Positions 6,029-22,206 of a stretch of DNA of 22,206 nt are shown one piece after another. Where the stretch lies: positions 1-22,206 of the forward strand of contig JBHLLG010000047.1 of NCBI GenBank assembly GCA_048885925.1, read 5' to 3'. The notes beneath the pieces were generated by a model, which was not told where the DNA came from, did not search any database, and worked only from the letters and a program-made list of their open reading frames with translations. Made by a program: the position numbers and the translations under genes. This stretch comes from Candidatus Hermodarchaeota archaeon. GTDB lineage: Archaea > Asgardarchaeota > Lokiarchaeia > Sigyniarchaeales > SOKP01. Each line of letters opens with the position of its first letter. Within the stretch, counting starts at the first letter, position 1.

Positions 6029-6447
6029 TTAAATTTTGGAATAGGAGGGAGGGTGTGAATCTTTTTCGTAATATCTGCGACAGAATTGATAAATTTTTCA
6101 ACCTCTGCCGCAGAGCAAAAGTATTGTTGAACTCTATCTTCAGAAATGCCTACATGTTTTAAAAATTTCTTTAATGTTAAAATATGTTTATAAGTATTCA
6201 TATTCCCGTTACCAAATTCACATTCGCCTTCTTTTCATGAAATTATTGCCACGCCATCAGCCCCATTTAAAAATGCTTCCATGATTAAATGAATACCAAT
6301 TCGCCCGGTACATCTTACACGAATCAAATGAAAATCAGTAGAATAAGACCTTCTTGTTACTCCAGTTAAATCAGCTGCAGAATACCCTCATTTATCACAG
6401 CCAAAAGCAATTATCTTTCTAGACTTTTCATCTTTTTTACTTGAAAT
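6019..6447 (-). CDS. mvhD: Hydrogenase iron-sulfur subunit MvhD/VhuD, selenoprotein with 2 Sec (TGA at 6390-6388 and 6237-6235); probable ATT start
   Basis: One frame reads KIIAFGCDK-U-GYSAADLTGVTRRSYSTDFHLIRVRCTGRIG...AFLNGADGVAIIS-U-KEGECEFGNGN into the 60-aa ORF of the track. Both TGA match the Cys ligands of MvhD motifs CxxC and GCxxGxC. Confidence 0.92.
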
Positions 6448-6468
6448 GATTAATTACCTCTAAATTGT

Positions 6469-8472
6469 TTATTGTTCTATCTTTTCAGGAATTTTTTTGT
6501 GAATTTCTAATTCATCACATCCAATTCCCTTGATTTCTTCTGAAAATTGCTTATCTCTATAATATTTTAAATCAATTGCTCTTGCTGGACAAGATGAAAC
6601 GCAGACACCACAGCCCTTACATTTTAAATCATCAACTTTAGCAATTTGATCTTCCTTAACTTTAATTGCTTCATAAAAGCAGAGTTTTTCGCATCTATGA
6701 CATCCCATGCATAGATCTTCATCTACTTCTGCAATGATTAATTCTTGTTTTATTGTATCATGTGATAATAATGTTGATGCTTTGCTTGCAGCAGCTAAAG
6801 CGGAAGATACTGAATAGGGGATGTTTTTAGGACCTGCAGCGCATCCACTTATATAAATTCCTAAATCCTTAGTTTCTTGAGGGCTCAAACAACCGTGGAT
6901 TTCAGTTAGAAATCCTCCCGGACCTTTACTTAATCCCATTACTTCAATAATTTCTTCAGTTCCCTTAGAAGGTACCATCCCTGTGGATAGTACAACCAAA
7001 TCTGCATCTATTCTAATAATCTCACCCGTCAATGAAGAATATGCTCTAACTTTTAACTTATTAGTTTTGGGGTCTTCTATTATTTCACCTACTTTTCCTC
7101 TTATCATTCTGATACCAGTTTCTCTTATTTTTCTGTAATAATCTTCATTTCCTTTATCAGTAGTACGAATATCTATATAAAACATAATAACTTCCATATC
7201 TGGATATTCTTGCTTTAATAACTGTGCATTTTTGAGTGCTACATTACAACAAACGAAAGAACAATAAGAATTTGCATTTACGTCTCTTGAACCCACGCAT
7301 TGAATCATGATCACTGTTTTTGGTGTTGTTCCATTAGATATTCTATAAACATGTCCACCTGTGGGTCCAATTGGGCTTAGCATTCTTTCCAATTCTATCT
7401 GAGTAATTACGTCTGAATAGATACCGTAATTGTATTCATTTGTTTTCCAAATAGGATATTCATCCCATCCTGTAGCTATAATTACGGATCCTACTTTCAC
7501 ATCAATAATTTCTTCTTTTTGTTCAAAATTTATAGCTTCAGCAGGGCAAGTTCTTTCGCAATTTTTGCAATCTATACATACAGTTCTATCCATTACAGCT
7601 AGTTTTGGCACAGCTTGAGGAAAAGGTATATAAATAGCGCCTCTTTCACCAATACCTCTATCAAATTCACTTGGTACTTTTATAGGGCATTTTGTTGTAC
7701 ATAATCCACATCCCGTACATTTTTTTTCATCAACATACCGAGGATTTTTTTTTATTTTAACATTATAATCCCCAGGAATCCCTCTAAATTCAACGACATC
7801 ACTATAAGTATATAATGTTATATTTGGATGCTTTGATGCATTTACCATGATGGGAGCTAGAACTCATATTCCACAATCATCAGTTGGGTAAATTCGATCT
7901 AATTGTGCCATTTTTCCTCCTATTGTTGCTTCTTTTTCTACCAAATAGACATTAATTCCTTGATTTGCTAAATCTAAGGCAGCATTCATTCCTGCGATAC
8001 CTGCTCCAACTACTAATACTGCTTTTTCAACAGGTATTTCTTTTCGAGGTATTGCCTCTAATTCACGTGCTCGATTTATTCCTGCTTTAATTAACCTTTT
8101 TGCTTTTTCTGTTGCATTTTCTCTGTCTTTAGCATGGACAAAAGAGCAATGTTCACGAAGATTTACCATTTGAAAAAAATACGGACTTAAACCTGCCTCA
8201 ATTAGGACAGCTCTATAGGTTGGTTCATGAATTTTAGGCGTACAAGCAGCTACTACTACTCTGTTTAAATTTAATTCTAAAATATCATTCTTGATAATAT
8301 TTTGACCAGGATCACTACAGGTAAAATCGTTTACTCGAGCAATAATTACATTAGGTAAATGTTCAACATAATCTCGAACAGCATCACAATCAATAGAAGC
8401 TCCTATGTTCACTCCTCACCTACATACATAAACTCCGATTCTTGGTTCATCCTTGGTCTGTTTATCAGACAA
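6469..8472 (-). CDS. hdrA: Heterodisulfide reductase subunit A family flavoprotein (667 aa), selenoprotein with 2 Sec (U19, TGA 8418-8416; U203, TGA 7866-7864)
   Basis: TTG start at 8472 behind AGGTGA; RIGVYVCR-U-GVNIG; VVGAGIAG FAD motif; PTDDCGI-U-VLAPIM joins the two track ORFs in one frame; CTGCGLC, CIDCKNC, IQCVGSRD...YCSFVCC, C-terminal CMGCHRC/CKGCGVC. Confidence 0.95.
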
Positions 8473-8681
8473 TTAATTCACCTTTTTGTAAAAGATCACC
8501 ATTGATTTTATGTAAATTTAAAATTTTACCTTAAATCTTAATGGTTTATGAAATTAATGAAATAATTTATTTTTTCTGATTAGACTTTAATAAGTGTTTA
8601 TTGTTGTTTTCTTTTAATTCAATATTAATTAATGTGAGCTTTCTCGTGAATTTTTTATGGAGAAATTAATTATAAAAAATT

Positions 8682-19553: not shown

Positions 19554-19595
19554 ATCTCAAAGGAAGAAAAAAAGAAGAATTAAAGATTCTAAAAA

Positions 19596-20558
19596 TTATC
19601 TTTCAATCATACCTGGAAGATAATAATCATATTTTTTTCTCAATAATTTAGTTTTTATAAATCTATCAAATTTCCTCATTCTCTGATATAGAACCCAGAC
19701 GAATTTATCAGATTTATAATATTTCTCAATTTCTTCAAAATTTAAAGGCTCAATATTAAATTCACTAGCCTCTTCTTTTAAAAAATTATTAACTACTTTT
19801 ATTAAAGATGGAATTAATTCTGGTTTCTGCTCTTTAAAGAAATTAGCTACAAGATCAATAATTACTAATCTCCAATCATAATATCTATCAATTAGATCTT
19901 GGAGAAAAATCCTTTTTAATAGCCCTCTTATAAATGAAGGCATACTTTTTGTCAATAATTCAATTTCCATTGCTTCAATTCCATTTATACGGTAAAATGG
20001 CGGAACTGTATCTATATAAATTAGTTTTGGATTCTGTTCTACAACAGGATTTTCTGGATTGTAATTAAGAACTGCAAAATTTGAAATTTGTCCATCTAAT
20101 CCAACGTCATAAGTCTGATTTTCCCTATTAAAAGCCCAAACTTTTTTCATTTCTCTTAGTGCATTAAGAACTAGAATCTCAGTCTCTTTCTTACTAACTT
20201 TATGAATCACTTTATTACCAACAGATTCAGATAAAATTTTTTCTTGGATTGCATAAAAAATGATTTTTCCTTCATCATTTTCAAACCAAACTATATCAAG
20301 TGGAGGGGTTTTGATATTTAATTCTTCATTTAAAATTCTATTATATTCTCGAAACACATGTTCGTGCTTTTTTGCTTGTTCATGAGTTTCAAAAATCGGT
20401 AATCGTTTATAGGCATACTTATAATTATCATTAACTATTTCAAAAACTAATGTAATCTCTCCATAACCAAGAATTTTTATAGGCACTATTCCTCTTTCTG
20501 GATTGCCCGTATCGATTGTTCGTTCTAATTTTTTTAATAATTCAATATTTACTTCTAT
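19596..20558 (-). CDS. DUF6206-like protein (kinase-like N-lobe pattern); probable ATA start at 20558 rather than GTG at 20486
   Basis: KILGYGEITLVF, AYKRLPIF, GLDGQISNF, YIDTVPP; open frame upstream (EVNIELLKKLERTIDTGNPERG) bounded by an in-frame TGA inside the SD-like AAGTGA. Confidence 0.65.
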   Translation of the reverse strand: MEVNIELLKKLERTIDTGNPERGIVPIKILGYGEITLVFEIVNDNYKYAYKRLPIFETHEQAKKHEHVFREYNRILNEELNIKTPPLDIVWFENDEGKIIFYAIQEKILSESVGNKVIHKVSKKETEILVLNALREMKKVWAFNRENQTYDVGLDGQISNFAVLNYNPENPVVEQNPKLIYIDTVPPFYRINGIEAMEIELLTKSMPSFIRGLLKRIFLQDLIDRYYDWRLVIIDLVANFFKEQKPELIPSLIKVVNNFLKEEASEFNIEPLNFEEIEKYYKSDKFVWVLYQRMRKFDRFIKTKLLRKKYDYYLPGMIER

Positions 20559-20695
20559 GGCAACTCACTTTCGAAATTAGCTATATTACTTAATCATAAT
20601 TTAATTTTAATATTATTTAAAAGTATAAACTTTATTCTTTTTGTTTTCTTTAAAGAATTAAAAATGAGACTTAGTTGAAAAAATAGGGGATTTTT

Positions 20696-22206
20696 ATAGA
20701 AGAGAGATTAGATTGGGAAAATTCTGAGATAATTGGTCAAAATAAAGAGCCTCCTCATAATACACTCATGCCTTATCAAGATATTGAATCTGCTTTAACT
20801 GGTAAGTTTGAATCTTCACAATATTACATATCTCTTAATGGTAAATGGAAATTTAACTGGGTAAAAAAACCAAGGGAGCGCCCAGAAGATTTTTATAAGA
20901 TTGCTTATGATGTTAGTAAATGGAATGAAATTTCTGTTCCAAGTAATTGGCAGTTGCATGGCTATGGAATTCCTATTTACACGGATAGTAAATATCCATA
21001 TAGCATTAATTTAAAAAACATACCGAGTATTGATCATGAATATAATCCAGTAGGATCATATCGAACAGATTTTATAATTCCTGAGAAGTGGGAAGGAAGA
21101 GAAATATTTATTCACTTTGCTGGTGTAGATTCCGCATTCTATTTATGGGTAAATGGTAGAAAGGTTGGATATAGTCAAGGTTCTATGACCCCAGCTGAAT
21201 TTAACATTACAGATTTTATAAAAAAAGAAAGTAATATTCTTGCTGTAGAGGTTTATCGTTGGTGTGATGGTAGTTATCTTGAAGATCAAGATATGTGGCG
21301 TTTAAGCGGAATTTTTCGAGATGTCTTTTTATTTTCTACAGATAAAATTCATATCCGAGATTTTGGTGTTTCTTGTGATTTTGATGAATCCTACAATACA
21401 TCCATATTAAAGGTTAAAGCAAAAATTCGAAATTATTCCTCAAATCGATTTAACAATTATATTATAGAATGGAAACTATTAGATAATAAAAATAAGATAA
21501 TTGGACCAGATCCTTTGGCAGTAAAATCATTTAACCTCATAGAAAATGAAGAGATCATCATTGAAATGGAAACTATAGTTGAAAAACCTCAAAAATGGTC
21601 GGCTGAAACTCCCTATCTTTATAATATGTTATTACTCTTAAAAAGTCCAAATGGTGAAGTTTTAGAAGTAGAACATTGTAAATACGGCTTTAGAAAAATA
21701 GAAATAAAAAATAATCAAATCTATATTAATGGGGTTTCGATTATTTTCAAAGGGGTTAATCGACATGAATTTGATCCAGATTATGGAAGAGCAATTCCAT
21801 ATTCAAGAATGACCCAAGATATTGAAATACTTAAACAAAATAATATTAATGCAATTAGAACAAGCCATTATCCTAATCACCCTAAATGGTATGATTTATG
21901 TGATGAATATGGAATTTATGTTATGGATGAGGCTAATGTTGAATCGCATGGTTTACGTAAAAAGTTACCTAAAAGTGATCCAAAATGGACTAATGCTGTA
22001 GTTGATAGGATGATAAGTATGGTTGAGCGAGATAAGAATCATCCTTGTGTTTTTATGTGGTCTCTTGGAAATGAATCTGGATTTGGTAAAAATTTCATAA
22101 AAATGAAAGAAGCTGCTCTTAAAATTGATAATACTAGACCAATTCACTATGAGGGAGATTATAAATTGAGAGTTTCTGATGTTTTTAGTACAATGTATAC
22201 AACTAC
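20696..22206 (+). CDS. lacZ: Beta-galactosidase, glycoside hydrolase family 2 (5' part; runs off the window); probable ATA start
   Basis: DWEN...[87 protein letters not shown]....WSLGNES, HYEG. Confidence 0.95.

Follow-up and report, generated by a model that had tools for sequence, protein, structure and literature searches.

In NCBI translation table 11, ATT, ATC and ATA (here together ATH) are listed as rare start codons, and the same three codons open genes in animal mitochondria, where the codes differ (ATA encodes Met) and no Shine–Dalgarno (SD) sequence is involved. Here we describe ATT and ATA starts that lie behind SD sequences in an Asgard archaeon, Candidatus Hermodarchaeota archaeon. 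The window analysed comprises 22,206 bp and is the complete contig C47 (JBHLLG010000047.1) of a metagenome-derived assembly, G000 (GCA_048885925.1; 3.90 Mb, 181 contigs, 29% G+C). At four genes of this window, encoding MvhD/FlpD, a HIT-family protein, a DUF6206 protein and a lacZ-like GH2 beta-galactosidase, the ATT or ATA codon is very probably the genuine translation start, and such codons recur across the assembly, including at the gene for the initiation factor aIF1.

The closest described case is bacterial, classically infC of E. coli, which encodes IF3: according to passages of PMC4705826, infC starts at AUU and is autoregulated. The genes described here resemble infC in having a near-cognate AUH start behind an SD and in that a fidelity-factor gene is itself among them. 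They differ in belonging to an archaeon with aIF1/aIF2-type factors, in numbering dozens rather than one or two and in leaving ATC unused in G000, and feedback is here presumed. In eukaryotes, eIF1 is autoregulated through the poor context of its own start codon, as passages of PMC6237735 describe; aIF1 is its homologue and also has a suboptimal start site, although the weakness lies in the codon and the SD rather than in a Kozak context and is known here from sequence alone. For an Asgard gene, the AtubA tubulin of a Kariarchaeaceae metagenome-assembled genome, a passage of PMC13394414 considers the deposited N-terminus too short and proposes a 'rare ATT start codon' whose distance from a ribosome-binding site is plausible. 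AtubA likewise is an Asgard gene with an ATT start, but it is one gene treated in passing, whereas the starts described here are genome-wide, backed by statistics and phylogenetically conserved. Sulfolobus aIF1 rejects AUU in vitro, as cited in passages of PMC4705826 and PMC6237735, whereas AUU appears to be used in vivo here when anchored by an SD. Archaeal GUG and UUG starts share the same initiation machinery, and TTG and GTG are used in this assembly too; unlike theirs, the mismatch of ATT and ATA falls on the third codon position, not the first. A literature search without supplements or subscription journals returned no paper that treats ATT/ATA starts of Asgard archaea on a genome-wide scale, and none that mentions a non-AUG start for aIF1.

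Throughout, ATG, GTG and TTG are counted as canonical starts. A 16S rRNA gene was not found in G000 and a congener fragment was used in its place; because this 16S ends in GGATCACCTCC, the SD was taken as GGAGGTGATCC, and aligned spacing was measured from the base equivalent, in its pairing, to the A of GGTGA. Orthologues were compared across 40 genomes, namely G000, 23 congeners and 16 genomes from other families of the order. All four window sites have the same layout: a stop codon lies 2–3 codons upstream of the ATH codon, and 24–51 codons pass without an in-frame ATG, GTG or TTG. The coordinates and SD-like motifs that a preliminary description of this DNA had given for the four sites are reproduced here, and in the orthologues the ATH codon either aligns with an ATG, TTG or GTG start or is itself conserved.

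In the mvhD/FlpD gene (6019–6447, minus strand), the putative ATT start (6447–6445) is reached through the frame TAA (6456–6454) TTA ATC ATT, with 40 codons free of in-frame ATG, GTG or TTG. Its SD motif, GAGGTAA (6454–6460, minus strand), has an aligned spacing of 6 nt to the ATT, and tagAGGT upstream of the start is conserved in orthologues. Among 20 congeners, the codon aligned with this ATT is ATG in 15, TTG in one and GTG in one; the remaining three have ATG one codon later. Pfam FlpD matches residues 12–133 (profile positions 1–122) and begins before any canonical codon. As a canonical comparison, hdrA (6469–8472, minus strand) has a TTG start (8472–8470) 5 nt after GGTGA (8482–8478), a point on which the preliminary description was also correct. 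Both genes, in addition, carry two in-frame TGA codons that it had overlooked (minus strand; mvhD 6390–6388 and 6237–6235, hdrA 8418–8416 and 7866–7864). Their contexts are Cys-like (CDK-U-GY, IIS-U-KEGEC, VC-R-U-G and GI-U-V), two TGA are retained in 20 of 20 same-genus mvhD orthologues, and the in-frame TGA codons of both genes probably encode selenocysteine.

The HIT-family gene (14842–15360, minus strand) has its ATT (15360–15358) 6 nt after GGTGA (15367–15371, minus strand), the TGA of the motif being the in-frame stop, and the first canonical codon of the frame comes 51 codons downstream of the ATT. Two Pfam domains, DcpS_C (from residue 25) and HIT (from residue 37), both begin before that codon. 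The start in 19 congeners is ATT in 16 and ATA in one, and in the other two an ATG or TTG occupies the neighbouring codon; in 12 of the 17 ATH-bearing orthologues the interval from the stop to the ATH contains no canonical codon. The congeners' SD is mostly GGTGA-N6, with some N5, N7 or degenerate versions, and the HIT proteins of other families have an N-terminal extension with ATG. Mean pairwise divergence over codons 2–51 is 0.184, 0.073 and 0.399 at codon positions 1, 2 and 3. Judged by this distribution among orthologues, the HIT ATT is itself old.

The other two genes diverge from a shared 137-nt spacer, and neither has an upstream gene. On the minus strand, the DUF6206 gene (19596–20558) has ATA at 20558–20556, preceded by the SD-like AAGTGA (20565–20570) and the 6 nt GTTGCC. 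Its first canonical codon, a GTG, lies 24 codons past the ATA, Pfam DUF6206 spans residues 11–299, and all 19 same-genus orthologues have ATG at the position of the ATA. In the stretch before the first canonical codon, mean pairwise divergence at positions 1, 2 and 3 is 0.203, 0.076 and 0.427. The upstream motif reads aGTGA in G000 (20565–20570) and TTGA in most congeners (loci L057–L075); the aGTGA at this ATA-started gene may reflect an SD strengthened in compensation. On the plus strand, the lacZ-like gene (20696–22204, continuing past the contig end) has ATA at 20696–20698, separated by TTTTT (5 nt) from the SD-like AGGGGA (20685–20690), which overlaps the TAG (20684–20686) that closes the frame. 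The first ATG, at 20768, is 24 codons past the ATA and is preceded by a DWEN motif. Among 18 same-genus orthologues, the codon aligned with the ATA is ATA in 6, ATG in 9, GTG in 1 and TTG in 2, and TAGGGGATTTTA is conserved before the lacZ ATA at loci L087, L090, L096 and L103. Divergence before the first canonical codon is 0.161, 0.088 and 0.378 at the three positions.

Sequencing runs from 8 studies contain the window stretch, with no RNA run among them, and contigs from four runs were compared, of which run X1 is possibly the source sample itself. Contigs from other studies agree with G000 at three sites (mvhD, HIT and DUF6206), and none of the sites has a listed indel. The mvhD ATT is found in X1 (record 1) and X6 (record 17), both with 0 differences, and in X4 (record 9), whose 6 differences all lie elsewhere. 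The HIT site is identical in X6 (record 21), both of whose 2 differences are elsewhere, and X1 (record 8) spans the DUF6206 ATA without a difference across 19963–20637. The lacZ site is spanned by a sole listed contig, X8 record 32, with 8 differences of unspecified position.

Next, SD spacing was examined over the whole assembly, using 3920 stop-to-stop open reading frames (ORFs) of at least 100 codons and, within them, every in-frame codon that precedes the first ATG, GTG or TTG by 4 codons or more. A strict SD 5-mer stood at an aligned spacing of 6–7 nt from 165 of the 27,343 such codons. These 165 included 47 ATT (11.3 expected by composition), 25 ATA (9.0) and 3 ATC (2.7), and every other non-canonical codon occurred at most 7 times. 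Enrichment at this spacing was 4.2-fold for ATT and 2.8-fold for ATA. A stricter set (codons lying 10 or more codons ahead of the first canonical one, ORFs of at least 120 codons) gave 40 ATT (8.2 expected) and 20 ATA (6.3) among 121 codons; at control spacings of 15–22 nt in that set no enrichment was seen and the codons followed composition. Assembly-wide, ATC, CTG, ACG and AAG were not enriched at SD spacing, and the AT-rich control codons AAT, TTA, AAA, TTT and TAT showed flat spacing profiles and no enrichment. With a 4-mer SD definition the result had the same direction and was noisier. Raw counts of GGTGA-Nx-codon without ORF context were set aside, as coding periodicity dominates them, and pattern scans of other genomes were not drawn on.

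The spacing profile itself resembles that of ordinary starts. At spacings of 4, 5, 6, 7, 8 and 9 nt, ATT was counted 7, 7, 29, 11, 1 and 0 times, a peak that coincides with those of ATG (20, 19, 40, 36, 19 and 19) and TTG (5, 8, 17, 7, 3 and 3); the ATH starts are confined to a narrower range (6–7) than ATG (4–9). When SD matches of at least 6 nt at spacings of 5–8 were considered, they led to ATG 44 times, TTG 13, GTG 4, ATT 21 and ATA 16, against 1 AAT, 1 TTA, 0 AAA, 3 TTT and 3 TAT among the controls, so that ATH codons make up about one third of the strongly SD-led starts. The overall SD share is low (106 of 2464 first ATGs under the strict setting), in agreement with reviews that, in the passages cited here, describe SD sequences as rare in Lokiarchaea (PMC7531240 and PMC12993045). 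The few strong SDs of this genome serve near-cognate starts disproportionately.

Domain boundaries offer a check that is independent of spacing. Of 50 candidates whose first canonical codon lies at least 15 codons on, 20 were compared with Pfam, chosen for large gaps of 37–112 codons. In 12 of the 20, a domain above its curated cut-off, matched from profile position 9 or earlier, begins upstream of the first canonical codon; the families are CorA, BcrAD_BadFG, AFOR_N, Phosphodiest, RUBY_RBDX, Gtr1_RagA, Robl_LC7, RHH_1, Fer4, CitMHS, IMPDH and adh_short. The domain starts at residue 6 in Gtr1_RagA, adh_short and AFOR_N and at residue 17 in IMPDH. Several eukaryote-like signalling proteins occur among the ATH candidates, including a Gtr1/RagA–Arf-like GTPase and a Roadblock/LC7 protein (C5:13533–14468 and C9:56194–56598 of G000, among others; loci L304 and L306), and canonical start calling would strip them of their N-terminal motifs.

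The number of such starts can be approached in two ways. By the strict SD count, 72 such codons were seen where about 20 were expected, which leaves some 50 genes in excess. A homology estimate counted the G000 ORFs whose alignment to a distant relative extends 10 residues or more beyond the first canonical codon on its upstream side: 9 of 169 against G037, 6 of 87 against G031 and 11 of 200 against G180, some of these rows being doubtful, and in roughly half to two thirds of them ATT or ATA stands near the upstream stop. On the partner side the figures were 1 of 169, 3 of 87 and 7 of 200, respectively. Same-genus figures against G021 (36 of 250 for the ORFs of G000, 27 of 250 for those of G021) were set aside as inflated by nucleotide-level conservation and antisense ORFs, and gap-length statistics were not used, being confounded by genes split at selenocysteine codons and by spurious ORFs. 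We estimate that ATT or ATA starts occur in at least about 50 genes, or 2–5% of the genes in the assembly. The preliminary description had read ATT and ATA as repeated, SD-guided starts in this lineage, and orthologue interchange, independent contigs, genome-wide SD spacing and Pfam boundaries all bear it out. Its wider term 'AUH' holds for ATT and ATA and is not supported for ATC, which in this genome occurs as often as composition predicts. Its rate of roughly 4 in 25 genes (16%) was not borne out genome-wide: the window has 4 in about 22, far above the share estimated for the assembly.

The spread of these starts was gauged from 400-kb samples of relatives, in which counts are too small for firm rates. 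At SD spacing 6–7, ATH accounted for 5 of 10 codons in G021 of the same genus (1.0 expected), 3 of 14 in G180 of the same family (1.6), and 1 of 8 in G031 (0.9) and 4 of 9 in G037 (1.1), both of other families. Each sampled relative has single convincing cases; in G037, for example, GGTGA-N6-ATT occurs in a stop-to-stop frame whose first canonical codon lies 113 codons in. Together with the partner-side figures, these samples indicate that starting at ATT or ATA is most pronounced in this genus and occurs only here and there in the rest of the order.

One of these codons belongs to aIF1/SUI1, a single-copy gene of G000 outside the window (C24:8656–8970, plus strand; loci L116/L117). Its frame reads TAA AAG AGT ATT AAA GAC GAC GAT ATT TGT, the first canonical codon follows 86 codons on, and the Zn knuckle has no canonical codon before it. 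Codons 2–21 diverge by 0.043, 0.009 and 0.236 at positions 1, 2 and 3. All 22 genomes of the genus that could be read have the ATT behind aaaGGTTGTGA, a context that is suboptimal in its codon, in its imperfect SD (GGTTGTGA) and in its long spacing. Sister genera have ATT in g14 (10 of 10), g12 (2 of 2) and g15 (1 of 1), ATC in g16 (2 of 2) and ATT or GTG in g13; elsewhere in the order the start is ATA in g5 (2 of 2), TTG in four genomes, GTG in two and ATG in G037. Outside the order, 38 genomes with a Zn-knuckle aIF1 divide into 20 with ATG, 7 with GTG, 7 with only CTG ahead of the knuckle, 2 with only ATA there and 2 that are ambiguous; in 9 of the 38, then, the knuckle has no ATG, GTG or TTG before it. 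The CTG-only genes (L257, L278, L280, L281, L288, L290 and L291) are mostly from family f9, in which a single aligned codon is CTG in some genes and GTG in others, and the ATA-only genes (L171 and L266) have their ATA behind GGAGG at an aligned spacing of 6. At the level of mRNA, aIF1 starts with AUU across the family and with AUC, AUA, CUG, UUG or GUG in other Asgard families. A second aIF1-like copy, with 61–66% identity to the query, was noted in five genomes (G023:C58, G007:C18, G087:C2, G139:C23 and G163:C75).

We propose that strong pairing of the mRNA (GGAGGUGA) with the 3′ end of 16S rRNA would position AUU or AUA precisely at the P site, where the ordinary initiator tRNA (anticodon CAU) would start despite the third-base mismatch, and that the product presumably begins with Met. 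Because the ATH spacing is so tight, SD anchoring may compensate for the weak third-base pairing; starts of this kind would be weak, and changes in the amount of aIF1 could tune them. The tRNA assignment is an inference; the initiator-type tRNA of G000 (C24) has A1:U72, three G:C pairs bordering the anticodon loop and the anticodon CAT. As regards a variant code in which ATA or ATT would be reassigned, a tRNA-Ile(GAT) is present. The initiator tRNA gene holds a 25-nt intron at position 40/41, and most tRNA genes of G000 were detected only when introns were allowed. Comparison of sequences establishes the position of the starts, their dependence on an SD at sharp spacing, their recurrence through the genome, and their conservation or interchange with ATG, TTG and GTG.

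Other explanations were weighed against this proposal. That the ATH codons are errors of assembly or sequencing (G>T/A miscalls or homopolymer indels hiding an ATG or TTG), or that the genes are pseudogenes, is hardly credible, even though the source is a 181-contig metagenome assembly, one-base indels in adjacent A/T runs would bring ATG (mvhD) or TTG/GTG (HIT) into frame, and at mvhD and DUF6206 the ATH is found in this species alone. Contigs of studies P2 and P3 show the mvhD ATT too, with no indel listed at the sites; the HIT ATT with its SD recurs in the assemblies of 16 other species with differing spacers, the lacZ ATA in 5 others and the aIF1 ATT in 21 others; and errors would not favour ATT and ATA specifically at SD spacing 6–7. 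The homopolymer-indel idea was accordingly rejected for HIT and mvhD on the basis of orthologues and independent contigs. Gene callers would instead place the start at the first downstream ATG, GTG or TTG, which would make the conserved upstream part an untranslated leader and the SD–ATH pair incidental; lacZ, whose GH2_N domain runs from residue 46, could plausibly function without its first 24 residues. Such a placement is nonetheless highly improbable, as the upstream stretches evolve as coding sequence, with third positions diverging 2–5 times more than second ones, and as they contain essential parts such as the Cys/Sec motif of FlpD, the Zn knuckle of aIF1 and the P-loop of the Rag/Arf-like GTPase. 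In addition, Pfam domains begin upstream in the 12 candidates named above, and orthologues have ATG exactly at the ATH position.

Ribosomes that finish an upstream gene might restart at a near-cognate codon, with no de novo recognition of AUU or AUA, and the places of the mvhD ATT, 21 nt downstream of the hdrA stop, and of the HIT ATT, 30 nt downstream of the preceding gene's stop, would suit such coupling. The divergent DUF6206 and lacZ genes have no upstream gene from which to restart, and a long same-strand ORF ending between −60 and +20 nt was found at only 14 of 72 SD-led ATH starts, as against 58 of 111 SD-led canonical starts and 439 of 1855 canonical starts overall. Since SD-led ATH codons mostly lack an adjoining upstream ORF and two of the four window genes are a divergent pair, restart after termination is not a general explanation, and we regard it as very unlikely to account for these sites. 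The preliminary description had favoured relaxed start-codon selection, in which altered aIF1/aIF2 or an altered initiator tRNA admits many near-cognate codons. The high share of TTG fits a permissive system (35 SD-led TTG against 106 ATG, besides the ATH starts), but the enrichment is limited to ATT and ATA, with none for ATC, CTG, ACG or AAG, the ATH spacing is narrower than that of ATG, and the initiator tRNA looks standard. Moreover, the aIF1 gene keeps its ATT in all 22 congeners and across the family, with near-cognate codons in sister genera, and this conserved ATT makes regulatory sense only if aIF1 still discriminates, which argues against fidelity that is simply relaxed. A global loss of fidelity is therefore unlikely, and the pattern is a better fit to retained discrimination used for regulation.

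Several observations weigh against reading the ATT and ATA codons as genuine starts. At mvhD and DUF6206 the ATH is restricted to this species, and each could be a recently weakened, poorly expressed gene. Five of the 17 ATH-bearing HIT orthologues have an in-frame GTG or ATG 2–4 codons upstream, within or beside GGTGA, where translation could start. The lacZ motif AGGGGA is one letter from AGGTGA and outside the strict SD set, which makes its assignment weaker than the others, and Pfam, with GH2_N placed well inside the protein, is uninformative on the lacZ N-terminus. Among the 72 strict ATT/ATA candidates, the roughly 20 expected by chance are included, and 8 of the 20 Pfam-tested candidates lack support (three uninformative because the domain starts later, two sub-threshold, one with a coiled coil only and two without a family). 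The tRNA inventory is incomplete (30 genes by ARAGORN, 23 by Rfam, many with introns), and a second initiator-like tRNA is possible. Taken with the comparative evidence, these points leave genuine starts at the four window codons as the very probable reading.

For the family, the conserved ATT of aIF1 resembles the autoregulation of bacterial infC, and a feedback loop of aIF1 on its own AUU start is, by this analogy, a reasonable reading. A broader possibility, which we put forward tentatively and hold to be somewhat less probable than not, is that the AUU and AUA starts form an aIF1-controlled regulon, in which aIF1 disfavours both codons, sets its own level by negative feedback and tunes some 50–170 SD-anchored AUH genes together. 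If true, the archaeal system would parallel the autoregulation of bacterial IF3/infC and of eukaryotic eIF1, and the logic of a fidelity-factor gene with a bad start site would either predate eukaryotes or have arisen three times. Systematic N-terminal mis-annotation, which the preliminary description foresaw, would follow from ATT and ATA starts: gene callers restricted to ATG, GTG and TTG would trim 10–110 residues from a few percent of the proteins that these Asgard genomes encode, and the trimmed parts include P-loops of Rag/Arf-like GTPases, Rossmann motifs and Fe–S motifs. Such trimming would distort structure predictions and searches for eukaryotic signature proteins; for AtubA the N-terminus has already been fixed manually, according to the cited passage of PMC13394414. 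The conserved AUU start of aIF1 makes it testable whether autoregulation of the eIF1 type was present in the archaeal relatives of eukaryotes.

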